A stretch of DNA of 54,847 bases, taken from NCBI RefSeq assembly GCF_003334385.1, contig NZ_QOWN01000031.1. The stretch is one strand, 5' to 3'. Source of the DNA: Escherichia coli. Lineage in GTDB: Bacteria; Pseudomonadota; Gammaproteobacteria; Enterobacterales; Enterobacteriaceae. The notes beneath the pieces are model-generated. The model was not told the origin of the DNA. It saw only the letters and a list, made by a program, of their open reading frames with translations, and ran no database searches. Shown one piece after another: positions 2-29,390 of the stretch (the stretch's first letter is position 1; each line of letters begins with the position of its first letter). A program made the position numbers and the translations under genes.

Positions 2-739
2 TGGCTTGCGCAGTGCGGGCTGACGGTGGAGCAACTGGCCAGACAGGTGGAGCCGGAATACACACCGGCGCGAAAAGCTCATCTTTATCACTGCGACCAC
101 CGGGGACTGCCGCTGGCGCTTATCAGCGAAGACGGCAATACGGCGTGGAGCGCGGAATATGATGAATGGGGCAACCAGCTTAATGAGGAGAACCCGCATC
201 ATGTGTATCAGCCGTACCGTCTGCCAGGGCAGCAGCATGATGAGGAATCAGGGCTGTACTATAACCGTCACCGGTACTACGATCCGTTGCAGGGGCGGTA
301 TATTACTCAGGACCCGATGGGGTTGAAAGGGGGATGGAATTTATATCAGTATCCTTTAAATCCACTACAACAAATTGACCCTATGGGATTATTGCAGACT
401 TGGGATGATGCCAGATCTGGAGCATGTACGGGGGGAGTTTGTGGTGTTCTTTCACGTATAATAGGACCAAGTAAATTTGATAGTACTGCAGATGCTGCGT
501 TAGATGCTTTGAAAGAAACGCAGAATAGATCTCTATGTAATGATATGGAATACTCTGGTATTGTCTGTAAAGATACTAATGGAAAATATTTTGCATCTAA
601 GGCAGAAACTGATAATTTAAGAAAGGAGTCATATCCTCTGAAAAGAAAATGTCCCACAGGTACAGATAGAGTTGCTGCTTATCATACTCACGGTGCAGAT
701 AGTCATGGCGATTATGTTGATGAATTTTTTTTCAAGTAG
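2..739 (+). CDS. rhsD: Rhs protein C-terminal end (5' partial): conserved core end with DPxGL motifs followed by a variable C-terminal toxin domain
   Basis: Open frame from the window start; translation contains the typical Rhs core end ([25 protein letters not shown]), then a divergent tail; the following gene is ybbC as in K-12. Confidence 0.75.
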
Positions 740-1307: not shown

Positions 1308-2017
1308 TGCTGGCGCTGATGGATGCGGATGGAAACATTGCGTGGAGCGGGGAGTATGATGAGTGGGGCAACCAGCTGAATGAAGAGAACCCGCATCACC
1401 TGCACCAGCCGTACCGGCTGCCGGGGCAGCAGTATGATAAGGAGTCGGGGCTGTACTACAACCGGAACCGGTACTACGATCCGTTGCAGGGGCGGTATAT
1501 CACTCAGGACCCGATAGGGCTGGAGGGGGGATGGAGTCTGTATGCGTATCCGCTGAATCCGGTGAATGGTATTGATCCATTAGGGTTAAGTCCCGCAGAT
1601 GTAGCGCTAATAAGAAGAAAAGATCAACTAAACCATCAAAGAGCATGGGATATATTATCTGATACTTATGAAGATATGAAGAGATTAAATTTAGGTGGGA
1701 CTGATCAATTTTTCCATTGTATGGCATTTTGTCGAGTGTCTAAATTAAATGACGCTGGTGTTAGCCGATCGGCGAAAGGGCTGGGTTATGAAAAAGAGAT
1801 TAGAGATTACGGGTTAAATCTGTTCGGTATGTACGGCAGAAAAGTAAAGCTATCCCATTCTGAAATGATTGAAGATAATAAAAAAGACTTGGCTGTAAAT
1901 GACCATGGGTTGACATGTCCATCAACAACAGATTGCTCAGATAGATGTAGTGATTATATTAATCCAGAGCATAAAAAAACGATAAAGGCTTTACAAGATG
2001 CTGGCTATCTCAAGTAA
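1307..2017 (+). pseudogene. ylbH: Orphan Rhs C-terminal module (displaced core fragment plus alternative toxin domain)
   Basis: Translation repeats the Rhs core end ([33 protein letters not shown]) and then diverges; start overlaps the ybbC stop; no full Rhs core upstream. Confidence 0.65.
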
Positions 2018-2234
2018 TCTATCAAAGATGATAATATTTATTTTTGCTATTATAATCATTGTTGTTTTATGCGTAATTACTTATCTTTATTTATACAAAG
2101 ATGAATCTCTTGTAAGTAAACATTACATAAACTATATGGCAATACCAGAAAATGATGGAGTTTTTACATGGCTCCCAGATTTTTTTTCCGCACGTAGCGG
2201 TGGATATATCAATATACACAAATGTAGAAGATGA
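1998..2234 (+). CDS. Small hydrophobic protein, possible immunity partner of the orphan Rhs module
   Basis: 78-aa ORF overlapping the end of the orphan module; strongly hydrophobic N-terminus ([22 protein letters not shown]); AT-rich. Confidence 0.35.
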
Positions 2235-2291
2235 TTATTTTTTTCTTATTTTTCCCTAACAAATGATGATGGGGGTAGGTTTAAGAAAACA

Positions 2292-2489
2292 TTGACAGTG
2301 AGGGCCAGGGAACAAGTGGCGAAAATCGTATCAAAGAATGATCCAGATACAAAAAAAGTGTGGTGTAAATATGGTAAGATACCAGGGCAAGGGGATGGTG
2401 TAAACCTTTTTTTTGTTGGTGAAATTAATGTTACGCATTATTTTATAACAAATATTGGAGCTGGATTGCCTGATGCTTGTGCAGAGTAA
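2292..2489 (+). CDS. Hypothetical small protein
   Basis: 65-aa ORF in AT-rich Rhs-associated DNA; no recognisable motif. Confidence 0.2.
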   Translation: MTVRAREQVAKIVSKNDPDTKKVWCKYGKIPGQGDGVNLFFVGEINVTHYFITNIGAGLPDACAE

Positions 2490-3003
2490 TTGCTTGAATT
2501 AAGAGTCTATCCCATATCGAAGTCGTCAACTTCGTAGTGAGGAAAAGTAAAATTCCTGACTGAGAAAAGACATGTCGGCTATTGTGTAAAGCCATATAGC
2601 TCAGACGATGAATATCTACTCGTATTCAGTTGTTTATTGAGGGTGAGTTCCGACCCTGAAACAACAAATAAAATGAACAGTCAGAGAGTTTACATAGAAT
2701 TGCACTGGTCTTTTACGATATCTGACATTGTGTAATACATATTCAGCCATGCATTAATTAAAATGTTACGTGTTTAATGTGAGTCCCTATCTGAAAATAA
2801 ATAATCCTTCCGGATTAAAATAAATTCTTGCCGGGAAAGAAAGAGGAAATAAACCATTAGCGGAAAACCAGCGGCACGCCAGGGTGACATGCCCCAGTAC
2901 GGCGGCCCGATAGTCCAGGGTTCAGCGGGGGTACTGATAGTCGCGCCGACTGCATCGAGAACTCCATACAACTTTTTACGGAACGTCACCTGATAAAATT
3001 TGT

Positions 3004-3411
3004 TCAGTATCGTCTTTTGAGATTCTCAAGGTTATGGAGTAACCAGACAGAACGGACACCACTGTCGGAGATAAAAACCCCCTGTTTACGCAGCTCGTTG
3101 CTGGCCCGGTGCTGACCATGTGTCGGGAAAGCGACGGCGTAATCAACAACAGCCTGTTCAGTTGCCTCATCGGTACGGTTCTTAAGGTTAGGAGCGCGGC
3201 GACTACGATTAATCTGCGCATCCACACCGCCTTCAGCGACCAGTTCGCGGTAACGATAAAACGTATCACGCGAAACGCCCATGATTTTACAGGCTTTTGA
3301 TACGTTGCTGAGTTCTTCAGCCAGATTGAGCAAACCGGCTTTGTGTTTGATGACGGGATTGGCAGTATGAAGCATGAGAGTTACCTCTTGTTTTGGATAA
3401 GGATTCGACAC
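3004..3411 (-). pseudogene. ylbG: Transposase-like helix-turn-helix fragment (truncated or frameshifted IS remnant)
   Basis: 135-aa ORF with an HTH-like segment (KACKIMGVSRDTFYRYRE); continues in overlapping minus-strand frames 2976-3269 and 2774-2989, suggesting a decayed gene. Confidence 0.45.
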
Positions 3412-3490
3412 TCATATCAAAACCGGTAACTCTCAACCTTTCAAGGCCATGTGTCAGATCAAGTCGCGACTAATACAAATACGTCCCTCA

Positions 3491-4600
<1,110 letters not shown>

Positions 4601-4653
4601 TCAAATCAGCTTGCGCGCTATTTTACGCGCCAACGCGCAAGGAAACTTGATTT

Positions 4654-5580
4654 TTAACTGCGTGGGTTGCCGAAAATTTCTAAAAATCCGCTGATTTCCG
4701 GCCTGCGCTGGGTAAACAAGGTCACAATATCTTCTACCGCTTTGCCGCTGCCAAATTTGCGCCATGCCAGACTCAATGGCGAAGGAGGGCGCATCGTTGG
4801 GATTACCCGGCTGACCAGTTGTTGATTATCGATCATTGACTGGCAAAGCGATTTTGGCAAAAAACCAATGCCAACGCCCGCCAGATGGGCGGCGATTTTC
4901 GTTTCCATATCGGGAACAATAATCTCTTTTTGCCCTGGCAATCGCCAGGCGACGCGTTTGGTTAAGGTGCGGGCGCTGTCTTCAATATTGACCGCCGGAA
5001 AGCGCCGCAACTGCGCTTCTGTTAGCGGCTCTTCAACGTTCGCCAGCGGATGATCCGCCGCCATGACAAAGCGCCATTGCACCGATCCTAAGGGATCAAG
5101 ACTAAAGGTATTTGCCAGCGCCTCAGTTCCCGTGACGCCGATAGCCAGCGAAAAACCTTCGTACAATAGCGAGTCCCAGACGCCCATATAGATTTGTCGG
5201 GAGATGTGAAACTGGGTAAAGGGGTAACGCTCATTCAGCCACGCCAGCAACTGGGCGACGGCCTGGGGGTTGTAGAGCAGGTTGTTGATGACAATATTCA
5301 CCTGGCGTTCCACGCCATCATTCACCTGTTGCAGCTCGCTTGGCATACTTTCCAGCCAGCTCAGCCAGTCTCTGGCCTGGGAAAGTAGATGCTCGCCAGC
5401 CGCTGTCAACGTCACGCTGCGAGTCGTACGGAAAAACAGCGCTACTCCGGTATTCTCTTCCAGAAGTTTAATGCGATAACTGATCGTCGCCGTGGTTTTA
5501 CATAATCGTTCTGCCGCTTTTGAAAAACTTCCTGTTTCAGCAACCGCAATGAAAGTCCGCAAGGTTTCTGGATCGAACAT
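4654..5580 (-). CDS. allS: LysR-family transcriptional activator of allantoin utilisation
   Basis: 308-aa ORF with N-terminal LysR HTH ([23 protein letters not shown]); divergent from allA. Confidence 0.85.
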
Positions 5581-5809
5581 CTTCAGGTATCCCCTTTTAA
5601 ATCCGCAAGTTGCGTGATTTTCTTATCCTCTGATTTATCAGTATTTTTACATGATAACCCTGTTCAATTTGTGGACTAAATCTAGTTTTGGAAAAATATT
5701 CCAGCTTTTGTATTGATGTTGTTCTCTTAAGGTTTTAGATTGCCTGTTATTGAAACCAAGCTGACCGGTCGGCGGTGGTTGAACGGAATTATGTTACAAG
5801 GACAAAAAG

Positions 5810-6292
5810 ATGAAACTTCAGGTATTACCGTTAAGTCAGGAAGCCTTTAGTGCTTATGGCGACGTAATCGAAACGCAGCAACGGGATTTTTTCCATATTA
5901 ACAATGGCCTGGTGGAGCGTTACCACGATTTGGCGCTGGTTGAGATTCTTGAGCAAGACCGTACGCTTATCAGCATTAACCGCGCGCAACCGGCGAATCT
6001 GCCGCTGACCATTCACGAACTCGAACGTCATCCGCTGGGTACTCAGGCCTTTATCCCGATGAAAGGTGAGGTGTTTGTGGTGGTCGTGGCGTTAGGTGAC
6101 GACAAACCAGACCTGTCAACGCTGCGGGCGTTTATCACCAACGGCGAACAGGGAGTGAATTACCATCGTAACGTCTGGCATCACCCACTTTTCGCCTGGC
6201 AGCGCGTCACCGATTTTCTGACCATCGATCGCGGCGGCAGTGACAACTGTGATGTTGAAAGTATTCCTGAACAGGAACTCTGTTTTGCGTGA
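5810..6292 (+). CDS. allA: Ureidoglycolate lyase
   Basis: 160-aa ORF; synteny allS-allA-allR. Confidence 0.85.
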
Positions 6293-6369
6293 CGCCTGCA
6301 ACCGACTTGCATAAGATAAACTAATTGTTCATTGTTTATGCTCACTTGTAGGTCGGAGTTAACGTAGGT

Positions 6370-7185
6370 ATGACGGAAGTTAGACGGCGCGGCAGGCCAG
6401 GACAGGCGGAGCCTGTGGCACAGAAGGGCGCACAGGCGTTAGAGCGGGGAATTGCGATTCTGCAATATTTGGAAAAAAGTGGGGGAAGTTCGTCGGTTAG
6501 CGATATTTCTCTCAATCTGGATTTGCCGCTCTCCACGACCTTTCGCTTGCTGAAGGTTTTACAGGCAGCGGATTTTGTCTATCAGGACAGTCAATTAGGC
6601 TGGTGGCATATAGGATTAGGTGTCTTTAACGTCGGTGCGGCGTACATCCATAACCGCGATGTCCTCTCCGTCGCCGGGTCGTTTATGCGCCGCCTGATGT
6701 TACTTTCCGGCGAAACGGTCAATGTCGCGATCCGTAACGGCAATGAAGCGGTATTAATTGGTCAGTTAGAGTGTAAATCGATGGTCAGGATGTGTGCGCC
6801 ACTGGGCAGTCGTCTGCCACTGCATGCTTCCGGTGCGGGCAAAGCGCTGCTTTATCCGCTGGCGGAAGAGGAGTTGATGAGCATCATTCTGCAAACCGGT
6901 TTGCAGCAGTTTACGCCAACTACGCTTGTGGATATGCCCACCTTGCTGAAGGACCTGGAACAAGCGCGTGAACTGGGCTATACCGTAGATAAAGAAGAGC
7001 ATGTTGTAGGTCTGAATTGCATAGCTTCAGCAATTTACGATGATGTCGGTAGTGTTGTTGCCGCTATCTCCATCTCCGGGCCTTCATCAAGACTGACAGA
7101 AGATCGTTTTGTCAGTCAGGGTGAGCTGGTCAGAGACACCGCCCGCGATATCAGCACGGCGTTGGGACTGAAAGCACATCCATAA
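6370..7185 (+). CDS. allR: IclR-family repressor of the allantoin regulon
   Basis: 271-aa ORF with IclR-type N-terminal HTH and C-terminal effector domain; synteny. Confidence 0.85.
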
Positions 7186-7274
7186 TGTCTGTCGCATCCC
7201 GCTCTGCGGAGCGGGTTTTTTTGACAAAATTTGAAAGTTGGAAAAATTTTCCAATAAATAGAGGTAGGAATAAA

Positions 7275-9056
7275 ATGGCAAAAATGAGAGCCGTTGACGC
7301 GGCAATGTATGTGCTGGAGAAAGAAGGTATCACTACCGCCTTCGGTGTTCCGGGAGCTGCAATCAATCCGTTCTACTCAGCGATGCGTAAGCACGGCGGT
7401 ATTCGTCACATTCTGGCGCGTCATGTGGAAGGTGCTTCGCACATGGCGGAAGGTTATACCCGCGCAACGGCAGGGAATATCGGCGTATGTCTGGGGACTT
7501 CCGGTCCTGCGGGCACGGACATGATCACCGCGCTCTATTCCGCTTCTGCTGATTCCATTCCTATTCTGTGCATTACCGGCCAGGCACCGCGCGCCCGTCT
7601 GCATAAAGAAGATTTTCAGGCCGTAGATATTGAAGCAATTGCTAAACCGGTCAGCAAAATGGCGGTTACAGTTCGTGAAGCGGCGCTGGTGCCTCGCGTG
7701 CTGCAACAGGCATTTCACCTGATGCGTTCTGGTCGTCCGGGTCCGGTACTGGTGGATTTACCGTTCGACGTTCAGGTTGCGGAAATCGAGTTTGATCCTG
7801 ACATGTACGAACCGCTGCCGGTCTACAAACCTGCTGCCAGCCGTATGCAGATCGAAAAAGCTGTAGAAATGTTAATCTAGGCCGAACGTCCGGTGATTGT
7901 TGCCGGGGGCGGGGTAATTAATGCTGACGCAGCTGCACTGTTACAACAGTTTGCTGAACTGACCAGCGTTCCGGTGATCCCAACGCTAATGGGCTGGGGC
8001 TGTATCCCGGACGATCATGAACTGATGGCCGGGATGGTGGGTCTGCAAACCGCGCATCGTTACGGTAACGCAACGCTGCTGGCGTCTGACATGGTGTTTG
8101 GTATCGGTAACCGTTTTGCTAACCGTCATACCGGCTCGGTAGAGAAATACACCGAAGGGCGCAAAATCGTTCATATTGATATTGAGCCGACGCAAATTGG
8201 TCGCGTGCTGTGTCCGGATCTCGGTATTGTCTCTGATGCTAAAGCGGCGCTGACACTGCTGGTTGAAGTGGCGCAGGAGATGCAAAAAGCGGGTCGTCTG
8301 CCGTGTCGTAAAGAATGGGTCGCCGACTGCCAGCAGCGTAAACGCACTTTGCTGCGCAAAACCCACTTCGACAACGTGCCGGTGAAACCGCAGCGCGTGT
8401 ATGAAGAGATGAACAAAGCCTTTGGTCGCGATGTTTGTTATGTCACCACCATTGGTCTGTCACAAATCGCTGCGGCACAAATGCTGCATGTCTTTAAAGA
8501 CCGCCACTGGATCAACTGTGGTCAGGCTGGTCCGTTAGGCTGGACGATTCCGGCTGCGCTAGGGGTTTGTGCCGCTGATCCGAAACGCAATGTGGTGGCG
8601 ATTTCTGGCGACTTTGACTTCCAGTTCCTGATTGAAGAGTTAGCTGTTGGCGCGCAGTTCAACATTCCGTACATCCATGTGCTGGTCAACAACGCTTATC
8701 TGGGGCTGATTCGTCAGTCACAACGCGCTTTTGACATGGACTACTGCGTGCAACTCGCTTTCGAGAATATCAACTCCAGTGAAGTGAATGGCTACGGTGT
8801 TGACCACGTAAAAGTAGCGGAAGGTTTAGGTTGTAAAGCTATTCGGGTCTTCAAACCGGAAGATATTGCGCCAGCCTTTGAACAGGCGAAAGCCTTAATG
8901 GCGCAATATCGGGTACCGGTAGTCGTGGAAGTTATTCTCGAGCGTGTGACCAATATTTCGATGGGCAGCGAACTGGATAACGTCATGGAATTTGAAGATA
9001 TCGCCGATAACGCAGCGGACGCACCGACTGAAACCTGCTTCATGCACTATGAATAA
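7275..9056 (+). pseudogene. gcl: Glyoxylate carboligase (TPP enzyme) interrupted by an in-frame TAG stop at 7878-7880
   Basis: Start [19 protein letters not shown] at 7275; reading frame ...[25 protein letters not shown] continues in the same frame to 9056; ORF track splits it into 7185-7880 and 7893-9056. Confidence 0.85.
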
Positions 9057-9068
9057 GGGAGATAAATA

Positions 9069-9845
9069 ATGTTACGTTTCTCTGCTAATTTATCGATGTT
9101 ATTTGGAGAATATGATTTTCTCGCCCGTTTTGAGAAAGCTGCGCAGTGTGGTTTTCGCGGCGTTGAATTTATGTTTCCTTATGACTACGACATTGAAGAA
9201 TTAAAACATGTGCTGGCGAGTAATAAACTCGAACATACGCTGCACAATTTACCGGCGGGTGACTGGGCGGCGGGGGAGCGCGGTATTGTCTGTATTCCTG
9301 GCCGTGAAGAAGAGTTTCGGGATGGCGTAGCAGCAGCGATTCGTTATGCCCGTGCGCTGGGTAATAAAAAAATTAACTGTCTGGTCGGTAAAACGCCGGC
9401 TGGTTTCAGCAGTGAACAGATTCACGCAACGCTTGTAGAAAACCTGCGTTATGCCGCGAATATGCTGATGAAAGAAGATATTTTATTACTGATTGAACCT
9501 ATTAACCATTTTGATATTCCTGGTTTCCATCTCACCGGAACTCGGCAGGCGCTGAAATTGATTGATGATGTTGGTTGCTGCAATTTGAAAATTCAGTATG
9601 ACATTTATCATATGCAGCGGATGGAAGGTGAATTAACCAACACCATGACTCAGTGGGCTGATAAAATTGGTCACCTGCAAATTGCCGATAATCCGCATCG
9701 CGGCGAACCGGGAACCGGAGAAATTAATTATGATTATCTCTTTAAGGTAATCGAAAATTCTGACTACAACGGTTGGGTTGGGTGTGAATATAAACCCCAA
9801 ACCACCACGGAAGCCGGTTTACGCTGGATGGATCCGTACCGTTAA
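9069..9845 (+). CDS. hyi: Hydroxypyruvate isomerase
   Basis: 258-aa ORF; synteny gcl-hyi-glxR. Confidence 0.85.
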   Translation: MLRFSANLSMLFGEYDFLARFEKAAQCGFRGVEFMFPYDYDIEELKHVLASNKLEHTLHNLPAGDWAAGERGIVCIPGREEEFRDGVAAAIRYARALGNKKINCLVGKTPAGFSSEQIHATLVENLRYAANMLMKEDILLLIEPINHFDIPGFHLTGTRQALKLIDDVGCCNLKIQYDIYHMQRMEGELTNTMTQWADKIGHLQIADNPHRGEPGTGEINYDYLFKVIENSDYNGWVGCEYKPQTTTEAGLRWMDPYR

Positions 9846-9944
9846 AACGTAACGCTATTCAGACAATGCTTTTTTAGGCCGCTAAGTTGGCAGGGGATCG
9901 TGTTGTCTGAATTCAGGAAAAGCGAAATTTAAAAGAGGTTAATT

Positions 9945-10823
9945 ATGAAACTGGGATTTATTGGCTTAGGCATTATGGGTACACCGATGGCCATTAATCT
10001 GGCGCGTGCCGGTCATCAATTACATGTCACGACCATTGGACCGGTTGCTGATGAATTACTGTCACTGGGTGCCGTCAGTGTTGAAACTGCTCGCCAGGTA
10101 ACGGAAGCATCGGACATCATTTTTATTATGGTGCCGGACACACCTCAGGTTGAAGAAGTTCTGTTCGGTGAAAATGGTTGTACCAAAGCCTCGCTGAAGG
10201 GCAAAACCATTGTTGATATGAGCTCCATTTCCCCGATTGAAACTAAGCGTTTCGCTCGTCAGGTGAATGAACTGGGCGGCGATTATCTCGATGCGCCAGT
10301 CTCCGGCGGTGAAATCGGTGCGCGTGAAGGGACGTTGTCGATTATGGTTGGCGGTGATGAAGCGGTATTTGAACGTGTTAAACCGCTGTTTGAACTGCTC
10401 GGTAAAAATATCACCCTCGTGGGCGGTAACGGCGATGGTCAAACCTGCAAAGTGGCAAATCAGATTATCGTGGCGCTCAATATTGAAGCGGTTTCTGAAG
10501 CCCTGCTATTTGCTTCAAAAGCCGGTGCGGACCCGGTACGTGTGCGCCAGGCGCTGATGGGCGGCTTTGCTTCCTCACGTATTCTGGAAGTTCATGGCGA
10601 GCGTATGATTAAACGCACCTTTAATCCGGGCTTCAAAATCGCTCTGCACCAGAAAGATCTCAACCTGGCACTGCAAAGTGCGAAAGCACTTGCGCTGAAC
10701 CTGCCAAACACTGCGAGCTGCCAGGAGTTATTTAATACCTGTGCGGCAAACGGTGGCAGCCAGTTGGATCACTCTGCGTTAGTGCAGGCGCTGGAATTAA
10801 TGGCTAACCATAAACTGGCCTGA
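9945..10823 (+). CDS. glxR: Tartronate semialdehyde reductase
   Basis: 292-aa ORF with N-terminal NAD-binding motif GFIGLGIMG. Confidence 0.85.
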   Translation: MKLGFIGLGIMGTPMAINLARAGHQLHVTTIGPVADELLSLGAVSVETARQVTEASDIIFIMVPDTPQVEEVLFGENGCTKASLKGKTIVDMSSISPIETKRFARQVNELGGDYLDAPVSGGEIGAREGTLSIMVGGDEAVFERVKPLFELLGKNITLVGGNGDGQTCKVANQIIVALNIEAVSEALLFASKAGADPVRVRQALMGGFASSRILEVHGERMIKRTFNPGFKIALHQKDLNLALQSAKALALNLPNTASCQELFNTCAANGGSQLDHSALVQALELMANHKLA

Positions 10824-10991
10824 TACCCGCAATAAAAATGGCCGATATCAGAAAATGAATCGGCCAGCAATATTAAAAAAGAAAGCAGCCAAAGATGTTG
10901 CTTCAGTATTAAAAATAATATTTTTATTTTATTTGTTCCTCATAGCTAGATTAAAACAACGTTATTCGATACGTGAAATTAAGAGGGATTT

Positions 10992-12446
10992 ATGGAACAT
11001 CAGAGAAAACTATTCCAGCAACGCGGCTATAGCGAAGATCTATTGCCGAAAACGCAAAGCCAGCGGACCTGGAAAACATTTAACTATTTTACCTTATGGA
11101 TGGGTTCGGTTCATAACGTTCCCAATTATGTGATGGTCGGCGGCTTTTTTATTCTCGGCTTGTCTACCTTTAGTATTATGCTGGCAATTATCCTCAGCGC
11201 CTTTTTCATTGCCGCGGTAATGGTATTAAACGGTGCTGCGGGCAGTAAATACGGTGTGCCTTTTGCCATGATCCTGCGTGCTTCTTACGGTGTACGTGGT
11301 GCACTGTTTCCCGGATTATTAAGGGGCGGAATTGCCGCCATCATGTGGTTTGGTTTGCAATGTTACGCGGGGTCACTGGCCTGCTTGATTCTGATTGGCA
11401 AAATCTGGCCGGGATTTTTAACTCTCGGTGGTGATTTCACTCTGTTAGGCCTTTCTCTACCGGGCTTAATTACTTTCTTAATCTTCTGGCTGGTCAACGT
11501 TGGTATAGGTTTTGGCGGTGGCAAAGTTTTAAATAAATTCACTGCCATTCTTAACCCGTGCATCTATATCGTTTTCGGCGGTATGGCGATTTGGGCGATT
11601 TCACTGGTCGGGATCGGTCCAATCTTTGACTACATTCCGAGCGGTATTCAGAAAGCAGAAAACGGTGGCTTCCTGTTCCTGGTGGTGATTAACGCGGTAG
11701 TTGCGGTCTGGGCGGCACCGGCGGTGAGCGCATCCGACTTTACGCAAAACGCCCACTCGTTTCGTGAGCAGGCGCTGGGGCAAACGCTGGGTTTAGTTGT
11801 GGCCTATATTCTGTTTGCGGTCGCCGGGGTATGTATTATTGCCGGAGCCAGTATTCACTGCGGCGCTGATACCTGGAACGTGCTGGATATTGTTCAGCGT
11901 TGGGACAGTCTGTTCGCCTCGTTCTTTGCGGTACTGGTTATTCTGATGACAACTATCTCCACTAACGCGACCGGTAATATTATTCCAGCCGGTTATCAGA
12001 TTGCCGCCATTGCACCGACAAAACTGACCTATAAAAACGGCGTACTGATTGCCAGTATTATCAGCTTGCTGATCTGCCCGTGGAAATTAATGGAAAATCA
12101 GGACAGCATTTATCTTTTCCTTGATATTATCGGCGGAATGCTTGGTCCGGTAATTGGTGTCATGATGGCGCATTATTTTGTGGTGATGCGCGGACAAATT
12201 AATCTTGATGAACTGTATACCGCACCTGGCGATTATAAATATTACGATAACGGTTTTAACCTCACTGCGTTTTCAGTAACTCTGGTGGCCGTTATTTTAT
12301 CTCTTGGCGGTAAGTTTATTCACTTTATGGAACCGTTATCGCGTGTTTCATGGTTTGTCGGCGTCATCGTCGCCTTTGCGGCCTACGCCTTATTAAAGAA
12401 ACGTACAACAGCAGAAAAAACAGGAGAGCAAAAAACCATAGGTTAA
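10992..12446 (+). CDS. ybbW: Putative allantoin permease (NCS1-family transporter)
   Basis: 484-aa polytopic membrane protein; synteny. Confidence 0.8.
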   Translation: MEHQRKLFQQRGYSEDLLPKTQSQRTWKTFNYFTLWMGSVHNVPNYVMVGGFFILGLSTFSIMLAIILSAFFIAAVMVLNGAAGSKYGVPFAMILRASYGVRGALFPGLLRGGIAAIMWFGLQCYAGSLACLILIGKIWPGFLTLGGDFTLLGLSLPGLITFLIFWLVNVGIGFGGGKVLNKFTAILNPCIYIVFGGMAIWAISLVGIGPIFDYIPSGIQKAENGGFLFLVVINAVVAVWAAPAVSASDFTQNAHSFREQALGQTLGLVVAYILFAVAGVCIIAGASIHCGADTWNVLDIVQRWDSLFASFFAVLVILMTTISTNATGNIIPAGYQIAAIAPTKLTYKNGVLIASIISLLICPWKLMENQDSIYLFLDIIGGMLGPVIGVMMAHYFVVMRGQINLDELYTAPGDYKYYDNGFNLTAFSVTLVAVILSLGGKFIHFMEPLSRVSWFVGVIVAFAAYALLKKRTTAEKTGEQKTIG

Positions 12447-12505
12447 TTAATCCCGATATTGAACATTGAGTTAAAAACCAATCTGTATTTTACAAGGAGT
12501 TTGTT

Positions 12506-13867
12506 ATGTCTTTTGATTTAATCATTAAAAACGGCACCGTTATTTTAGAAAACGAAGCTCGCGTTGTAGATATCGCCGTTAAAGGCGGAAAAATTGCTGC
12601 TATCGGTCAGGATCTGGGCGATGCAAAAGAAGTTATGGATGCGTCTGGTCTGGTGGTTTCGCCGGGCATGGTTGATGCGCACACCCATATTTCTGAACCG
12701 GGTCGTAGCCACTGGGAAGGTTATGAAACCGGTACTCGCGCAGCGGCAAAAGGTGGTATCACCACCATGATCGAAATGCCGCTCAACCAGCTGCCTGCAA
12801 CGGTTGACCGCGCTTCAATTGAACTGAAGTTCGATGCCGCTAAAGGCAAGCTGACTATTGATGCGGCACAACTCGGTGGCCTGGTGTCTTACAACATCGA
12901 CCGTCTGCATGAGCTGGATGAAGTGGGCGTTGTCGGCTTCAAATGCTTCGTTGCGACCTGTGGCGATCGCGGTATCGACAACGACTTCCGTGATGTAAAC
13001 GACTGGCAGTTCTTCAAAGGTGCGCAGAAGCTGGGCGAACTGGGTCAGCCGGTGCTGGTGCACTGCGAAAACGCGCTGATTTGTGACGAACTGGGCGAAG
13101 AAGCGAAGCGTGAAGGTCGCGTAACCGCTCATGACTATGTGGCTTCGCGTCCGGTATTTACCGAAGTGGAAGCAATTCGCCGCGTACTGTATCTGGCGAA
13201 AGTTGCTGGTTGCCGTCTGCACGTTTGCCACGTCAGCAGCCCGGAAGGTGTTGAGGAAGTGACTCGTGCACGTCAGGAAGGTCAGGACGTTACTTGTGAA
13301 TCCTGCCCGCATTACTTTGTACTGGATACCGATCAGTTCGAAGAAATCGGTACTCTGGCGAAGTGTTCACCGCCGATCCGCGATCTGGAAAACCAGAAAG
13401 GCATGTGGGAAAAACTGTTTAACGGTGAAATCGACTGCCTGGTTTCCGACCACTCTCCATGCCCGCCGGAAATGAAAGCCGGTAACATCATGAAAGCATG
13501 GGGCGGTATCGCCGGTCTGCAAAGCTGCATGGACGTGATGTTCGATGAAGCGGTACAGAAACGCGGTATGTCTCTGCCAATGTTCGGCAAATTAATGGCG
13601 ACTAACGCAGCAGATATTTTCGGTCTGCAGCAAAAAGGCCGTATCGCCCCAGGAAAAGATGCCGACTTCGTCTTCATTCAGCCGAATAGCAGCTATGTTC
13701 TTACCAATGACGATCTGGAATATCGCCACAAAGTCAGCCCGTATGTTGGCCGTACCATTGGCGCGCGTATCACGAAAACCATCTTACGTGGTGATGTGAT
13801 TTACGACATTGAACAGGGCTTCCCTGTTGCGCCGAAAGGTCAATTTATCCTTAAACATCAGCAGTAA
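12506..13867 (+). CDS. allB: Allantoinase
   Basis: 453-aa ORF with amidohydrolase metal-binding motifs (DAHTH near the N-terminus); synteny. Confidence 0.85.
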
Positions 13868-13923
13868 TCTGGCCCCTGCAATGCCCGTCCTTGCGGCGGG
13901 CATTCTCCGGTTAAGGTGTGTTT

Positions 13924-15225
13924 ATGTTCAATTTTGCAGTCAGCCGCGAAAGCCTGTTATCAGGATTTCAGTGGTTTTTCTTTATTTTTTGCAACACGGT
14001 TGTGGTTCCTCCTACGCTACTTTCTGCTTTTCAGTTGCCGCAAAGTAGCCTGCTTACGCTCACGCAATATGCTTTTCTTGCTACCGCACTGGCCTGCTTC
14101 GCTCAGGCGTTTTGCGGTCATCGTCGCGCTATTATGGAAGGGCCAGGTGGCCTGTGGTGGGGAACCATCCTTACTATCACCCTTGGTGAAGCATCGCGCG
14201 GGACACCGATCAACGATATCGCCACCAGCCTGGCAGTGGGGATTGCACTCTCCGGCGTGCTGACGATGTTGATTGGTTTTAGCGGATTAGGCCATCGCCT
14301 GGCACGGTTATTTACGCCGTCGGTGATGGTCTTGTTTATGTTGATGCTGGGCGCGCAGCTGACCACTATCTTTTTCAAAGGTATGCTCGGGCTGCCGTTT
14401 GGCATAGCCGACCCGAATTTTAAAATTCAGTTACCGCCGTTCGCGCTCTCGGTGGCGGTGATGTGCCTGGTACTGGCGATGATTATCTTCCTGCCGCAAC
14501 GTTTTGCCCGTTATGGCCTGCTGGTCGGCACCATAACCGGCTGGTTGTTGTGGTACTTTTGCTTTCCTTCTTCGCACTCGCTCTCCGGTGAGTTGCACTG
14601 GCAGTGGTTCCCGCTCGGCAGTGGCGGTGCTTTGTCGCCGGGAATTATTCTGACGGCGGTGATTACAGGTCTGGTAAATATCAGCAATACCTACGGTGCG
14701 ATTCGGGGCACGGATGTTTTTTATCCGCAGCAGGGCGCAGGGAATACGCGTTATCGTCGTAGCTTTGTGGCGACCGGATTTATGACGCTGATAACCGTAC
14801 CGCTGGCGGTAATTCCATTTTCACCGTTTGTTTCATCCATTGGTTTATTAACCCAGACTGGCGATTACACGCGGCGTTCGTTTATTTATGGCAGCGTTAT
14901 TTGCCTGCTGGTGGCGCTGGTTCCTGCACTCACGCGACTGTTTTGCAGTATCCCTTTACCCGTGAGTAGTGCGGTCATGCTGGTTTCTTATCTGCCTTTA
15001 CTCTTTTCCGCGCTGGTGTTTAGCCAGCAAATAACGTTTACCGCTCGCAATATTTATCGACTCGCATTGCCGTTATTTGTCGGCATATTTTTAATGGCAT
15101 TACCGCCTGTGTATCTGCAAGACCTTCCATTAACGCTTCGTCCTCTGCTCAGTAACGGCTTATTGGTCGGGATTTTACTGGCTGTTCTTATGGATAACCT
15201 TATTCCGTGGGAACGCATCGAATAA
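13924..15225 (+). CDS. ybbY: Putative purine/nucleobase permease
   Basis: Polytopic membrane protein; start chosen at MFNFAVSRES (the ORF track begins 2 codons earlier at 13918). Confidence 0.75.
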   Translation: MFNFAVSRESLLSGFQWFFFIFCNTVVVPPTLLSAFQLPQSSLLTLTQYAFLATALACFAQAFCGHRRAIMEGPGGLWWGTILTITLGEASRGTPINDIATSLAVGIALSGVLTMLIGFSGLGHRLARLFTPSVMVLFMLMLGAQLTTIFFKGMLGLPFGIADPNFKIQLPPFALSVAVMCLVLAMIIFLPQRFARYGLLVGTITGWLLWYFCFPSSHSLSGELHWQWFPLGSGGALSPGIILTAVITGLVNISNTYGAIRGTDVFYPQQGAGNTRYRRSFVATGFMTLITVPLAVIPFSPFVSSIGLLTQTGDYTRRSFIYGSVICLLVALVPALTRLFCSIPLPVSSAVMLVSYLPLLFSALVFSQQITFTARNIYRLALPLFVGIFLMALPPVYLQDLPLTLRPLLSNGLLVGILLAVLMDNLIPWERIE

Positions 15226-15246
15226 TTTGTTGAAAAAGGATTGATA

Positions 15247-16392
15247 ATGAAGATTGTCATTGCGCCAGACTCTTTTAAAGAGAGCTTAAGTGCAGAAAAA
15301 TGTTGTCAGGCAATTAAAGCCGGGTTTTCGACCCTCTTTCCCGATGCGAACTATATCTGTTTGCCGATAGCGGATGGCGGCGAAGGGACGGTGGATGCGA
15401 TGGTCGCCGCGACGGGCGGCAACATCGTGACGCTTGAAGTCTGCGGGCCGATGGGCGAAAAAGTGAATGCTTTTTATGGCCTTACCGGCGACGGGAAAAC
15501 GGCGGTGATTGAGATGGCGGCAGCAAGTGGCCTGATGCTGGTCGCGCCTGAAAAGCGTAATCCGTTGCTGGCCTCCAGTTTTGGTACGGGGGAGTTAATT
15601 CGTCATGCGCTGGATAACGACATTCGCCATATTATTCTCGGCATTGGCGGCAGTGCGACGGTCGACGGCGGTATGGGCATGGCGCAGGCGCTCGGTGTGC
15701 GTTTCCTTGATGCCGACGGTCAGGCGCTGGCGGCAAACGGTGGTAATTTAGCGCGCGTGGCAAGCATTGAGATGGATGAATGCGATCCGCGTCTGGCGAA
15801 TTGCCATATTGAAGTAGCATGTGACGTTGATAACCCGCTGGTAGGGGCACGCGGCGCGGCGGCGGTGTTTGGCCCGCAAAAAGGGGCAACGCCGGAGATG
15901 GTCGAAGAACTTGAACAGGGGCTGCAAAATTACGCCCGTGTTTTACAACAGCAAACTGAAATTAATGTCTGCCAGATGGCGGGCGGCGGCGCTGCGGGCG
16001 GTATGGGTATTGCGGCGGCGGTATTTCTCAATGCGGATATTAAACCGGGCATTGAAATTGTGTTGAATGCGGTCAATCTTGCGCAGGCAGTGCAGGGCGC
16101 AGCACTGGTGATTACCGGGGAAGGGCGCATCGACTCGCAAACGGCAGGCGGTAAAGCGCCGCTGGGTGTGGCGTCGGTGGCGAAGCAGTTTAATGTACCG
16201 GTGATTGGGATTGCTGGCGTATTGGGTGATGGCGTGGAAGTGGTGCACCAGTACGGCATTGACGCGGTATTCAGCATTTTGCCTCGTCTGGCACCTTTAG
16301 CCGAAGTGCTCGCCAGCGGTGAAACCAATCTCTTCAACAGCGCGCGAAATATTGCCTGCGCCATTAAAATAGGTCAGGGAATTAAAAACTAA
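15247..16392 (+). CDS. glxK: Glycerate kinase II
   Basis: 381-aa ORF starting [16 protein letters not shown]; glycerate kinase family; synteny. Confidence 0.85.
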
Positions 16393-16404
16393 CCCTTACC
16401 TTTA

Positions 16405-16560
16405 AAGCGGATGCGATTTATATCGCATAAGAGTGCAGTACTCATGCCGGATGCGGCATGAGTACCATATCCTTCCTGAAAATCGCGCAAATTCTATATA
16501 TTGCAGAGATCATGTAGGCCTGATAAGCGAAGCGCATCAGGCAATGTTACAAAAAAAGCC
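16405..16560. repeat. REP/palindromic-unit cluster between convergent glxK and allE
   Basis: Palindromes gtactcatgccggatgcggcatgagtac and gcctgataagcgaagcgcatcaggc, plus hairpin gccacggtataaaccgtggc. Confidence 0.6.
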
Positions 16561-16619
16561 ACGGTATAAACCGTGGCAAAATCCAACATAGCTAAAAATA
16601 ATCAGGCGAGTGGTATGAC

Positions 16620-17405
16620 TTAAATCTCTACGTCGCGGTTACAATCTTTCGAGTAAATATAGCTGAACGCTTCACCACGCCCTACACCATAACCAGCCTG
16701 TAAAGAATAAGCGCCCATAAAGATGTAATCGCCTTTTTTCACCGGGATCCAGTTATTGTCGAGGTTATAAACCCCCTGACCGGAAAGAATATAGGCACCG
16801 TGTTCCTGAACGTGTGTTTCGATATAACCGTGGCTGGCACCTGGTGCAAAAGAGAGGATATGCATGTTCATATCAAAACCTAACTCTTTGGGCAGAAAAT
16901 CCAGCAGAATAACATCGTCCATGCCTTCATAATGAATGCGTTCCAGTTCGCTGGCATTGCCAGAAACCAGCCACGGTGCATAGCCTTCTACCGGAACATA
17001 GCGGCGCTTATATAAAAAGATTTGGCTGTCTTCGGCCTGGGCGTTAACAAACGTCATTAAGGAGCCTGGCGGGCAATAAAGATAGCCACCTTCGCTTAAG
17101 GCAAATGTTTTGCCTTCGGCTTTGGCAGTGATATTTCCAGAGATCACATACAGGAACGTTTCAATGCCTTCGCCACCGAAGCCCTGTTGGTTGCCACCGT
17201 TTTGATGCAGTGTGACCAGATAATCAACAAAAGAGGCACCCAGCTTTGGCGTGGAGAGGATTGTCGCGTCACAATTTTCAAAGCCCGGAATAATATTTTT
17301 TACCAGACCATCCGGGGTTAACAGTGCGAAATTACCGTGTTTAACAATCGCACGGTTAGCCAGTAAATCTTCGCGGTAACCGGTGACGTTATTTAAATAT
17401 CCCAT
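16620..17405 (-). CDS. allE: Ureidoglycine aminohydrolase (cupin)
   Basis: 261-aa ORF; synteny upstream of allC. Confidence 0.8.
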   Translation of the reverse strand: MGYLNNVTGYREDLLANRAIVKHGNFALLTPDGLVKNIIPGFENCDATILSTPKLGASFVDYLVTLHQNGGNQQGFGGEGIETFLYVISGNITAKAEGKTFALSEGGYLYCPPGSLMTFVNAQAEDSQIFLYKRRYVPVEGYAPWLVSGNASELERIHYEGMDDVILLDFLPKELGFDMNMHILSFAPGASHGYIETHVQEHGAYILSGQGVYNLDNNWIPVKKGDYIFMGAYSLQAGYGVGRGEAFSYIYSKDCNRDVEI

Positions 17406-17415
17406 TTATGACTCC

Positions 17416-18651
17416 TTATTTCTGCCAGGCAAGTTGATAAAGCATGAGTGCCAACGTTTTGACCCCTTCGGCAAGGTCGGTAATATTGGTGCGTTCCGCC
17501 GGGTTATGGCTGATCCCGTTGATGCTGGGGATAAAAATCATGCAGGTTGGTACGCGAGGCGCGAAAATTTGCGCGTCGTGCCCGGCACCACTGTGCATCA
17601 CCCGGTAATTCAGTTTTTCTCTTTCACACAATTCTGTCAGGGTGGCGACCAGCTCCTTATTCATCGGCACGGGTTCTTCGTCCATCCATAAATCGATATC
17701 AATACCAATGTCCATTTCATCGCAAATCGCCCGCATGTCGTTTTCTAACTGTTGGGTGAAATCGCGCAGCACGGCAGCGTCGGTATGACGACAATCAATG
17801 GTGAACGTGGTTTTACCCGGCACCACATTTACCGTATTCGGGCGCGGCTCTACTTTGCCAAAGGTCAGAACCAGCGGATCGCCCATCCTTTTCGCTTTTT
17901 CGACCGACTGATGGCAAATGCGACTGAAAGCGTAAACTGTATCACGACGATAACCCATCGGCGTGGTGCCTGCATGGTTTGATTCGCCGTTCAGCGTTAC
18001 CGTATAACGACGCTGCCCGACAATTGCATTCACCACGCCAATTGATTGCCCATTACTTTCCAGCACACAGCCCTGTTCAATATGCAGTTCAACAAAGGCT
18101 TTAATATCCTGACGCGGAGTTAGTGGGGCGTTCGGAAGAGTAAATCCGCAAGCCTTCATCGCATCGACAAAACTATTTCCTTTGGCATCACAGATATTCC
18201 GCACGTCGTCAGGATTCGCCAGCCCAAAAATATTTTTACTGCCCCAGAAGACATACGGGAAGCGGCTGCCTTCTTCTTCTGCCATCGCCACCACTTCGAC
18301 CGTACGTAGCGGCGCGCCGTATTGCGTTTTCAGCCAGTCAATTGCCAGCCACGCCGCCAGCGCGCCGAATTGCCCGTCAAGGTTACCGCCGTTAACCACG
18401 GTATCGATATGCGAACCGCTCAGAACCACTTCCTGTGGATATTCGGTGCCATTCAGGCGACCGTATAAATTCCCCACTTCATCGAAACGTGTTTCCAGCC
18501 CGCTTGCTGCCATTCTTTTTTTAAATTGCTGCTGGGTTTCCAGCCATTCCGGCGAATAAAGTAAACGGGTCATCCCACCCGCTGGGTCAGCGCCAAAAGA
18601 GGAAAGCCAGGGCAGCGTTTCTTCTATAGCTTGACGGAAATGTGTAATCAT
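17416..18651 (-). CDS. allC: Allantoate amidohydrolase (M20 peptidase family)
   Basis: ORF 17416-18669; start taken at MITHFRQAIEE (411 aa). Confidence 0.85.
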   Translation of the reverse strand: MITHFRQAIEETLPWLSSFGADPAGGMTRLLYSPEWLETQQQFKKRMAASGLETRFDEVGNLYGRLNGTEYPQEVVLSGSHIDTVVNGGNLDGQFGALAAWLAIDWLKTQYGAPLRTVEVVAMAEEEGSRFPYVFWGSKNIFGLANPDDVRNICDAKGNSFVDAMKACGFTLPNAPLTPRQDIKAFVELHIEQGCVLESNGQSIGVVNAIVGQRRYTVTLNGESNHAGTTPMGYRRDTVYAFSRICHQSVEKAKRMGDPLVLTFGKVEPRPNTVNVVPGKTTFTIDCRHTDAAVLRDFTQQLENDMRAICDEMDIGIDIDLWMDEEPVPMNKELVATLTELCEREKLNYRVMHSGAGHDAQIFAPRVPTCMIFIPSINGISHNPAERTNITDLAEGVKTLALMLYQLAWQK

Positions 18652-20038: not shown

Positions 20039-21706
20039 ATGATCCACGCCTTTATTAAAAAAGGGTGTTTTCAGGATTCGGTCAGTTTAATGATTATTTC
20101 ACGAAAACTCAGCGAATCAGAAAATGTTGATGATGTTTCCGTAATGATGGGTACGCCCGCCAATAAAGCGTTATTAGATACCACAGGTTTCTGGCATGAC
20201 GATTTTAATAACGCCACGCCGAACGATATTTGCGTGGCAATTCGTAGCGAAGCGGCGGATGCGGGGATCGCGCAGGCGATTATGCAGCAGCTTGAAGAGG
20301 CGCTAAAACAACTGGCGCAGGGGTCAGGCTGCAGCCAGGCGTTGACGCAGGTGCGTCGCTGGGACAGTGCCTGTCAGAAATTACCCGACGCCAGTCTGGC
20401 GCTGATTTCAGTGGCTGGCGAGTATGCGGCGGAGCTGGCGAACCAGGCGCTGGATCGCAACCTCAACGTGATGATGTTCTCCGATAACGTCACGCTGGAA
20501 GATGAAATCCAACTTAAAAGCCGCGCGCGGGAAAAAGGCTTGCTGGTGATGGGGCCGGACTGCGGTACGTCGATGATTGCCGGCACGCCGCTGGCTTTTG
20601 CTAACGTGATGCCGGAAGGCAATATTGGCGTCATTGGCGCTTCCGGTACCGGGATTCAGGAACTGTGTTCGCAGATTGCGCTGGCAGGGGAGGGAATTAC
20701 TCACGCGATTGGCCTTGGCGGGCGCGACCTCAGCCGTGAAGTGGGCGGCATCAGTGCGCTGACGGCGCTGGAAATGCTCAGTGCAGACGAGAAAAGCGAA
20801 GTGCTGGCATTTGTTTCAAAACCGCCTGCCGAAGCTGTGCGTCTGAAAATTGTTAATGCCATGAAAGCAACCGGCAAACCGACGGTGGCGCTGTTTTTAG
20901 GTTATACCCCGGCGGTGGCCCGCGACGAGAATGTCTGGTTTGCCTCCTCGCTGGATGAGGCCGCACGCCTGGCTTGCCTGCTTTCACGCGTTACGGCGCG
21001 ACGTAACGCGATAACGCCTGCCAGCAGCGGATTTATTTGCGGTTTGTATACCGGCGGTACCCTGGCTGCCGAAGCGGCGGGATTACTTGCTGGACACCTT
21101 GGCGTGGAAGCCGACGATACCCATCATCACGGCATGATGCTCGACGCCGATGGTCACCAGATTATTGACCTCGGCGATGATTTCTACACCGTCGGGCGTC
21201 CCCATCCGATGATCGACCCAGCCTTACGCAATCAGTTAATTGCCGATCTCGGCGCTAAACCGCAAGTGCGCGTATTGCTGCTTGATGTCGTGATTGGCTT
21301 CGGTGCGACCGCCGATCCTGCCGCCTCGCTGGTAAGCGCCTGGCAAAAAGCCTGTGCTGCGCGTTCAGACAATCAACCACTGTATGCCATTGCCACGGTG
21401 ACAGGCACTGAACGTGACCCGCAATGCCGCTCGCAGCAAATCGCCACGCTGGAAGATGCGGGGATCGCGGTAGTGAGTTCGCTGCCGGAAGCCACCTTGC
21501 TGGCGGCGGCACTGATTCGTCCGCTTTCGCCTGCCACTCAGCAACACACACCGTCATTACTGGAAAACGTCGCCGTGATTAACATCGGATTACGCAGCTT
21601 TGCGCTGGAGCTACAAAGCGCCAGCAAACCGGTTGTGCATTACCAATGGTCGCCAGTCGCCGGCGGCAATAAAAAACTGGCTCGTTTATTAGAACGTTTG
21701 CAATAA
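20039..21706 (+). CDS. fdrA: FdrA protein (acyl-CoA synthetase/succinyl-CoA ligase-like)
   Basis: 555-aa ORF; synteny fdrA-ylbE-ylbF-ybcF. Confidence 0.8.
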   Translation: MIHAFIKKGCFQDSVSLMIISRKLSESENVDDVSVMMGTPANKALLDTTGFWHDDFNNATPNDICVAIRSEAADAGIAQAIMQQLEEALKQLAQGSGCSQALTQVRRWDSACQKLPDASLALISVAGEYAAELANQALDRNLNVMMFSDNVTLEDEIQLKSRAREKGLLVMGPDCGTSMIAGTPLAFANVMPEGNIGVIGASGTGIQELCSQIALAGEGITHAIGLGGRDLSREVGGISALTALEMLSADEKSEVLAFVSKPPAEAVRLKIVNAMKATGKPTVALFLGYTPAVARDENVWFASSLDEAARLACLLSRVTARRNAITPASSGFICGLYTGGTLAAEAAGLLAGHLGVEADDTHHHGMMLDADGHQIIDLGDDFYTVGRPHPMIDPALRNQLIADLGAKPQVRVLLLDVVIGFGATADPAASLVSAWQKACAARSDNQPLYAIATVTGTERDPQCRSQQIATLEDAGIAVVSSLPEATLLAAALIRPLSPATQQHTPSLLENVAVINIGLRSFALELQSASKPVVHYQWSPVAGGNKKLARLLERLQ

Positions 21707-21715
21707 GGGGTTCCC

Positions 21716-22975
21716 ATGTTTACATCAGTGGCGCAAGCCAATGCTGCGATTATCGAACAAATTCGTCGCGCTCGTCCACACTGGCTGGATGTGCAACCGG
21801 CTTCTTCACTTATCAGCGAACTAAACCAGGGCAAAACACTGCTTCACGCCGGGCCGCCAATGCGCTGGCAGGAGATGACCGGACCTATGAAAGGGGCGTG
21901 CGTGGGCGCATGTCTGTTCGAAGGTTGGGCGAAAGATGAAGCGCAGGCGCTGGCAATACTGGAGCAGGGGGAAGTGAACTTCATTCCTTGTCACCATGTG
22001 AATGCCGTCGGGCCAATGGGCGGTATTACTTCTGCCAGTATGCCGATGCTGGTGGTCGAGAACGTGACCGACGGCAACCGGGCGTACTGCAACCTCAACG
22101 AAGGTATCGGCAAAGTGATGCGTTTTGGCGCTTATGGCGAAGATGTCCTGACTCGCCATCGCTGGATGCGCGATGTGTTAATGCCAGTATTAAGCGCGGC
22201 GCTGGGGCGCATGGAGCACGGTATCGATCTCACGGCGATGATGGCGCAGGGCATTACCATGGGCGATGAGTTCCATCAACGCAATATTGCTTCCTCAGCA
22301 CTGTTAATGCGTACGCTGGCCCCACAAATTGCTCGCCTCGATCATGATAAACAGCACATTGCGGAAGTGATGGATTTCCTCAGCGTGACCGATCAGTTCT
22401 TCCTCAACCTCGCGATGGCCTACTGCAAGGCGGCGATGGATGCTGGCGCGATGATCCGCGCAGGCAGCATCGTTACGGCTATGACCCGCAACGGCAATAT
22501 GTTCGGGATTCGGGTAAGCGGGCTGGGTGAACGCTGGTTTACTGCGCCTGTAAACACTCCGCAAGGTCTGTTTTTCACCGGCTTCTCGCAGGAGCAGGCG
22601 AACCCGGATATGGGCGATAGCGCGATTACCGAAACCTTTGGTATCGGAGGTGCGGCAATGATCGCAGCGCCTGGCGTAACGCGCTTTGTCGGTGCGGGTG
22701 GCATGGAAGCGGCCAGGGCGGTATCTGAAGAGATGGCGGAAATTTACCTTGAACGCAATATGCAGTTGCAGATCCCAAGCTGGGATTTTCAGGGCGCCTG
22801 CCTGGGACTGGACATTCGTCGCGTGGTAGAAACCGGTATTACGCCACTCATCAATACCGGTATCGCCCATAAAGAGGCGGGGATCGGGCAGATTGGCGCA
22901 GGCACCGTGCGGGCACCGCTGGCGTGTTTTGAACAGGCGCTGGAAGCACTGGCTGAAAGCATGGGGATTGGTTGA
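21716..22975 (+). CDS. ylbE: DUF1116-family protein
   Basis: 419-aa intact ORF; synteny. Confidence 0.75.
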
Positions 22976-22985
22976 GGAACGCACA

Positions 22986-24691: not shown

Positions 24692-24699
24692 TCGTAGGC

Positions 24700-24880
<181 letters not shown>

Positions 24881-24885
24881 ACCAG

Positions 24886-26459: not shown

Positions 26460-26576
26460 GCGTCTTAAAACTCCTGTGGTGCACAACTCTCGGCTTTAGA
26501 GGGCACAGAGAATAGCACGGAAAGAGAGTAAGGAAAACGGTTGCGTGGCTGTGAAATCAGCAAAGTTGCGGGTTTT

Positions 26577-29389: not shown

Positions 29390-29390
29390 G

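Follow-up and report, generated by a model that had tools for sequence, protein, structure and literature searches.

The interrupted gcl frame

The stretch of DNA analysed here, called the window throughout, is the whole of contig QOWN01000031.1 (54,847 bp) of the draft assembly GCA_003334385.1, and it carries the Escherichia coli allantoin/glyoxylate cluster. Within that cluster the frame of gcl, which encodes glyoxylate carboligase (Gcl), runs from an ATG at 7275 to a TAA at 9054–9056 (1782 nt) and is broken by a single in-frame TAG at codon 202, exactly where the preliminary description of this DNA had placed it (7878–7880). The isolate is phylogroup-A-like and nearest to SCU-104. Its gcl has recently become a pseudogene, and we consider it likely that the lesion is a deamination event at a Dcm-methylated cytosine, of the kind that Coulondre et al. 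described for the amber hotspots of lacI. Both the Dcm methylation site at codon 202 and the recurrence of the mutation across E. coli had been overlooked in that earlier reading. The features on which the argument turns are the following.

7275–9056, + strand: the gcl (glyoxylate carboligase) frame, interrupted; a pseudogene by nonsense mutation (from translation, comparison with MG1655 and match to Gcl structures)
7878–7880, + strand: in-frame amber TAG at codon 202, ancestrally CAG (Gln202); position 7878 is C in MG1655, SCU-104 and FDAARGOS_1337
7877–7881, + strand: CTAGG, apparently the Dcm site CCAGG after deamination, with the change at the inner (methylated) C (window compared with MG1655 and SCU-104)
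7580–7584, + strand: CCAGG, the second Dcm site of gcl, C-CAG-G at codon 103; intact in the window and a potential amber hotspot (from the inventory of Dcm sites)
7275–7880, + strand: truncated product of 201 amino acids, with the Pyr (TPP_enzyme_N) domain only (PF02776 is the sole match on contigs with the same allele)
7893–9056, + strand: downstream open reading frame, called mechanically, with a GTG start; 387 amino acids, comprising the central flavin adenine dinucleotide (FAD) domain and the PP (diphosphate-binding) domain (PF00205, PF02775)

The window gcl departs from that of K-12 MG1655 at one position only, 7878 (T in the window, C in K-12). The gene is thus otherwise intact, as had been supposed, and a chance arrangement of open reading frames is ruled out, the 1782-nt frame being in all other respects identical to K-12 gcl. 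Codon 202 is CAG in K-12 MG1655, in SCU-104 (the nearest complete genome) and in FDAARGOS_1337, and alignment to these references bears out the earlier expectation of an ancestral glutamine codon lost through a single recent nonsense change, C>T. Downstream of the TAG lie 391 sense codons and a stop (7881–9056, 1176 nt), rather than the 388 codons first reported. With the TAG read as Gln, the protein matches E. coli Gcl crystal structures (2PAN, 8I01 and others) over its full length, and the identity of the sequence to that of the characterised enzyme is clear; what the gene lacks is the uninterrupted reading frame of a functional Gcl, with its Pyr, central FAD and PP domains. In the closest relatives of the window (2–10 differences per 4–20 kb) gcl is intact, and the amber change is therefore recent and lineage-specific.

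The active site of Gcl-family enzymes requires the Pyr and PP domains together; the 201-residue fragment should therefore be inactive, and loss of Gcl activity is expected on these grounds. That gcl is still functional, whether because the amber is suppressed by a tRNA encoded elsewhere in the genome or because the 201-residue fragment and a reinitiated 387-residue fragment form an active split enzyme, seems to us very improbable. The frame remains intact beyond the stop, which lies precisely at the boundary of the Pyr and central domains; a GTG is found 13 nt downstream of the stop, and reinitiation after nonsense codons is known in lacI. However, any recent mutation would be expected to leave the frame downstream intact, and the sole Shine-Dalgarno-like element upstream of the GTG at 7893 is an AGG 11 nt away, which is not a convincing ribosome-binding site and makes reinitiation there unlikely. 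The only tRNA in the window is tRNA-Arg(UCU) (argU), which rules out a suppressor tRNA within it (a prophage-borne one, for example), and the TAG is carried by just 6 of the 5400 complete genomes that match the stretch; it is therefore not a conserved recoding signal, and nothing in the window points to programmed recoding or suppression.

Reliability and ancestry of the amber allele

Among the complete RefSeq E. coli genomes searched, none was identical to the window, and the idea that it comes from one of these, or from a laboratory strain known to carry an amber, was dropped. The nearest, SCU-104 (NZ_CP053284.1), is collinear with it over all 54.8 kb; the two differ by 22 substitutions and 2 single-base indels (99.956% identity). 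Two further assemblies reproduce the TAG along with all linked lineage-specific single nucleotide polymorphisms (SNPs): the Logan assembly of SRR7819145, which agrees with the window at every position from 1474 to 16539, and GCA_012504395.1, in which a 39,256-bp contig with different boundaries does so over 4992–18446. In SRR1815429, the linked SNPs are held in common with the window where the two overlap. The allele belongs to a small clone near SCU-104 that has been sequenced and assembled several times, and random read or assembly error is effectively excluded.

The preliminary description had allowed for a sequencing or assembly error, a caveat that the recurrence of the allele and its linked private SNPs in GCA_012504395.1 and the SRR7819145 assembly now makes unlikely. 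Dcm motifs are a known class of systematic nanopore consensus error, codon 202 lies in such a motif, and relative to three references the window has one extra T in T-runs at 725 and 2180, another typical error class; a true CAG might on this account have been misread in sequencing, basecalling or assembly, for instance through a methylation-induced miscall. Against this, of the 126 CCWGG (Dcm) sites across the 54.8 kb all but one are unchanged from SCU-104, and the allele turns up again in assemblies made independently; a nanopore-type basecalling error at Dcm motifs was rejected on these grounds. Moreover, the identity of the two assemblies with the window extends over 13–15 kb and takes in the additional T at 2180 as well as the TAG and the linked private SNPs, and the same allele occurs in complete genomes from several laboratories. 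Taking these points together, we regard an error of any of these kinds as extremely improbable.

Lineage differences were polarised with SCU-104, MG1655 and FDAARGOS_1337 within 38 kb, which left the window clone with 12 substitutions of its own, as well as 2 +T insertions in T-runs that are likewise private. Transitions made up 11/12 of the substitutions; 8 were nonsynonymous (the amber included) and 3 synonymous. Seven were C>T, all on the + strand (988, 4115, 6679, 7878, 9289, 11909 and 12122), with no G>A, and 6/7 of these lie outside Dcm sites. This pattern suggests strand-biased cytosine deamination or a mutator episode, and the private changes as a whole look like recent mutation before filtering by selection; the spectrum might come from an episode of mutator activity or heightened deamination, or from nothing more than a short terminal branch.

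Several details accompany this spectrum. Of the private C>T changes, 6/7 fall in + strand genes, on the strand that is not transcribed; three of the seven (988, 9289 and 11909) have the context G-C-CTGT in common, and none of the four private substitutions at 20330–33720 is C>T. Those at 6679 and 9289 were considered as errors, or as a shared imported block, and this was rejected: each occurs alone on other backgrounds, and the two occur together in this clone only. With around 25 blocks each in the large public-assembly collection, they fall within the range of arbitrary transitions there and are not treated as special hotspots. The extra T at 725 (T8, against T7 in the three references) is a frameshift with loss of the last ~58 amino acids of RhsD, its C-terminal toxin tip, while that at 2180 (again T8 against T7) shifts the frame of a small open reading frame at 1998–2259 and is reproduced in the SRR7819145 assembly.

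Dcm context and recurrence of the amber

At codon 202 the window reads AATCTAGGCCG, where MG1655 and SCU-104 have AATCCAGGCCG. The ancestral ATC-CAG-GCC holds CCAGG, a recognition site of Dcm, and its inner C is the mutated base; the change is thus both at the inner C of an ancestral CCWGG and a C>T (G:C>A:T) transition. This is the configuration described by Coulondre et al. in 1978, where two amber sites dominate the lacI nonsense spectrum through G:C>A:T changes at the second C of CCAGG; the lacI hotspots are absent in E. coli B strains without cytosine methylation, and introducing a new methylation site into lacI gave a new hotspot (PMC12606429). The T:G mismatch left by 5-methylcytosine deamination in the CTWGG/CCWGG context is the substrate of very-short-patch repair by Vsr, and strains without vsr show frequent C>T changes at such sites (PMC2715241). 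The dcm-vsr genes are present in 5368/5426 complete E. coli genomes, and the window lineage is therefore very probably Dcm-positive. In 2 of 16 haplotypes the CAG of codon 202 follows ATT instead of ATC, which leaves no Dcm site there.

The following sequence of steps most likely accounts for the allele. Dcm would have methylated the inner cytosine of CCAGG at gcl codon 202, and spontaneous hydrolytic deamination of that 5-methylcytosine would have given thymine, in a T:G mismatch invisible to uracil glycosylase. Had Vsr repair missed the mismatch before replication, the change would have been fixed as CTAGG and, the CAG being in frame as C-CAG-G, would have produced an amber codon. Translation would then end after 201 residues, leaving the Pyr domain alone, with the FAD and diphosphate-binding domains unmade and Gcl activity lost. 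In consequence the glycerate branch (glyoxylate to tartronate semialdehyde) would be blocked, and expression of hyi-glxK might be lowered by polarity.

The allele is not confined to the window clone. A search of 5426 complete genomes with a 33-mer centred on the T, in which every 28-base megablast seed had to contain the T, recovered it in six: DA61218, SCU-112, 400625, GIMC1410:G-002-25, 2e and STEC2018-607. In all six, gcl is annotated by PGAP as having an ‘internal stop’. Carriers and window together represent four haplotypes, separated by 41–138 differing sites per 4 kb: that of the window (K-12-like), those of 2e and STEC2018-607, and that of an identical clade of DA61218, SCU-112, 400625, GIMC1410 and GCA_964038025. 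This last, a B2 clade, has the gcl allele of CFT073, Nissle 1917 and ATCC 25922 with one mismatch, and the 2e allele is likewise common to many genomes with one mismatch, i.e. with CAG. The search for CAG versions covered the B2 and 2e haplotypes, and the window haplotype was judged from the reference comparison; since CAG versions of all three exist, the TAG arose within each of them. A single origin spread by descent is rejected, given 41–138 differences per 4 kb between carriers and the CAG versions of two haplotypes. Identical tracts between backgrounds around the TAG are as short as 98 bp, so that a recombinational transfer would have to involve an unusually short patch, and independent mutation is the simpler reading of the allele on several haplotypes. 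Recurrence of the kind expected at a Dcm hotspot was accordingly found, in a semi-quantitative sense that is confounded by clonal spread.

K-12 gcl contains two Dcm sites only, both in frame as C-CAG-G (codons 103 and 202). At the other of these, the Q103* truncated product was found in 276 blocks of a large public-assembly index, on at least five backgrounds. A third amber, Q115*, had been taken as a non-Dcm control and was dropped from that role and reclassified: on the three backgrounds retrieved, codon 114 is TTC and not the K-12 TTT, which creates CCAGG (3/3 loci). This synonymous TTT>TTC difference makes a new Dcm site in some haplotypes; the window (7614–7619) and K-12 have TTT, without the site. 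Exact truncated products were then counted only in blocks whose longest contig was at least 10 kb, a threshold that leaves fewer contig-end truncations. Dcm-context ambers numbered 503 (Q202*), 89 (Q103*) and 41 (Q115*), compared with 6 (Q167*), 3 (Q192*) and 6 (Q225*) for ambers outside Dcm context. In the 5426 complete genomes, Q202* was present in 6 genomes of 3 origins and Q103*, for which a single flank variant was tested, in 1 genome, whereas the 33-mer test for non-Dcm CAG>TAG changes gave 0 genomes for Q373*, 0 for Q192* and 2, with adjacent accessions, for Q225*.

These counts bear on whether the change at codon 202 was an ordinary, methylation-independent transition, a product of some general C>T-prone or mutator episode, with its several backgrounds owed to short-tract recombination or to sheer sequencing numbers. 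The private spectrum of the clone is in keeping with this, with seven + strand C>T changes between 988 and 12122 (six of them off Dcm sites), two homopolymer frameshifts and 11/12 substitutions being transitions; very short conversion tracts have been reported in E. coli; and Q167*, Q192* and Q225* are each found on 2–3 backgrounds in a very large collection. However, the three Dcm-context ambers outnumber the three non-Dcm controls 7- to 170-fold in the long-contig blocks, Q115* occurs on exactly those backgrounds where the synonymous TTT>TTC makes a Dcm site, a tract imported into the B2 haplotype would need to be under 98 bp, and the complete-genome controls amount to 0, 0 and 2 genomes against 6 for Q202*. 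We judge an ordinary transition unlikely, and favour the hotspot mechanism over a general C>T episode because the change falls on the methylated C, at a site also hit in other lineages.

Selection offers a different account of the recurrence: loss of gcl or of the glycerate branch might be favoured in some niches, the hotspot being merely the commonest route to it. A B2 clade with a wide geographic range (Sweden, USA, Kenya and Russia) is fixed for the TAG, many different gcl nonsense alleles exist, and the cluster of STEC2018-607 carries further damage. At that locus (NZ_CP075697.1, 1345043–1351143) the gcl amber is accompanied by an internal stop in allS and by an IS1 insertion with a deletion from the 3′ end of gcl into the 5′ part of allW, which has removed hyi and glxR; the allantoin/glyoxylate cluster is in progressive decay there. 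Against selection as the principal cause, the rarity of nonsense alleles away from the hotspots argues that mutation supply sets the pattern, and in all carriers but STEC2018-607 the rest of gcl and the downstream genes are intact, as for recent neutral loss. As the main source of the recurrence, selection therefore seems rather improbable to us.

A number of points nevertheless weigh against deamination at a Dcm hotspot. The dcm and vsr genes lie outside the window, and methylation of the codon-202 site in this strain is no more than likely. The six other private + strand C>T changes are off Dcm sites, and a C>T-prone episode of a general kind could explain the gcl change too. Clonal spread inflates the block counts, the majority of those for Q202* probably coming from one B2 clade, and some contig-end truncations are included as well, so the contrast between Dcm and non-Dcm ambers is semi-quantitative; the complete-genome numbers are small (3 origins against 0, 0 and ~1), and non-Dcm ambers are also found on several backgrounds. 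One Q103* locus, on a contig of SRR25626806, reads GGT-TAG, a non-Dcm context as it stands, where other backgrounds have GGC-TAG; it arose either outside a Dcm context or through a tandem CC>TT change. The recurrence could, finally, owe something to selection for gcl loss as well. Even so, the position of the change and the excess of Dcm-context ambers make a deamination hotspot event of the Coulondre type the probable origin of this recent pseudogene, with the chemical cause read from the pattern of alleles.

Consequences, neighbouring genes and known systems

Deletion of gcl stops growth of E. coli on glyoxylate, and without Gcl the bacterium can neither use the glycerate branch nor grow on glyoxylate or glycolate (PMC11667706). 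The predicted phenotype of the strain is thus an inability to grow on glyoxylate or glycolate as sole carbon source, with the glycerate branch of allantoin catabolism lost. The block in the glyoxylate-to-glycerate route that had been proposed from the sequence holds, then, for carbon; it does not necessarily extend to allantoin nitrogen, which is freed mainly via the Gcl-independent oxamate branch (PMC12535856).

As the first gene of the gcl-glxK operon, gcl is under repression by AllR, which also represses allA and allS (PMC12535856). Two neighbouring features are relevant.

9069–16392, + strand: hyi, glxR, allW, allB, ybbY and glxK, the downstream genes of the gcl-glxK operon (gene order from SCU-104, operon structure from PMC12535856), with intact frames
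6370–7185, + strand: allR, the gcl-operon repressor gene, with the lineage-specific missense change P104S (C>T at 6679; from three-reference polarisation)

The frames of hyi, glxR, allW and allB were checked and are intact. A promoter and terminator scan from the TAG to hyi found no promoter-like site, which is weak evidence; the ~1.2 kb of untranslated mRNA could therefore cause Rho-dependent polarity, possibly affecting hyi, glxR, allW, allB, ybbY and glxK. AllR P104S is private to the clone that lost gcl, and the same variant is also found by itself in 29 blocks, on several unrelated backgrounds. Further along the window, from ~38190 to 54847, a lambdoid prophage adjoins argU (38098–38174), and the contig ends inside it. 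Its genes include integrase, exo/bet/gam, a CI-like repressor, O/P replication genes, rusA, a Q antiterminator, an ompC-like porin and lysis genes. SCU-104 has a nearly identical prophage, and the DLP12 remnant that K-12 has at the same site is far less complete.

For annotation, gcl is to be treated here as a pseudogene. The amber allele is already flagged as such in RefSeq annotations of other strains, and a literature search found no relevant description of E. coli gcl pseudogenisation, of the recurrence of the allele or of its Dcm context. Understood as above, the gcl amber is a natural example of a known hotspot, ordinary biology with no new mechanism. Its interest is as a population-genomic illustration of the 1978 lacI result, in which in-frame C-CAG-G Dcm sites are predictable weak points that yield the same nonsense allele in unrelated lineages. 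Q202* is homoplasic, which matters wherever shared pseudogene alleles are used as phylogenetic markers, and also for the prediction of recurrent loss of function from sequence context alone. A more speculative idea, which we think quite improbable, is that codon 202 acts as a quasi-reversible switch, going from CCAGG to CTAGG by 5-methylcytosine deamination and back by the action of Vsr on a T:G mismatch from replication error; the present evidence covers the forward step only. Were this so, gcl would switch between off and on states at raised rates in both directions, taking the glycerate-branch operon with it through polarity, possibly under niche-dependent selection, in a methylation-based analogue of phase variation.

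The closest parallel is with the lacI amber hotspots (PMC12606429). In gcl, as there, G:C>A:T at the second C of a CCAGG in frame as C-CAG-G gives an amber, and the site is over-represented relative to other amber-able codons; the codon-114 TTC polymorphism, which makes a CCAGG and is associated with the new amber Q115*, resembles the hotspot engineered in lacI. Unlike that of lacI, the gcl pattern comes from natural populations in public genomes and not from selected laboratory mutants, and its over-representation is confounded by clonal spread. With regard to Vsr repair of T:G at CTWGG/CCWGG (PMC2715241), the CTAGG of the window is exactly the unrepaired product that Vsr normally prevents, so that the gcl mutation would be an escape from repair rather than an instance of it. 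The ‘internal stop’ gcl pseudogenes of six RefSeq strains share with the window the same nucleotide, the same codon and the same 201-residue product, but they stand on other haplotypes (41–138 differences per 4 kb) and appear to be of independent origin, the window event being that of a small separate clone near SCU-104. Finally, the reconstructed window protein is a full-length match to E. coli Gcl (PDB 2PAN), a thiamine diphosphate (ThDP)/FAD enzyme of the acetohydroxyacid synthase/pyruvate oxidase family, whereas the gene as it stands encodes residues 1–201 only.

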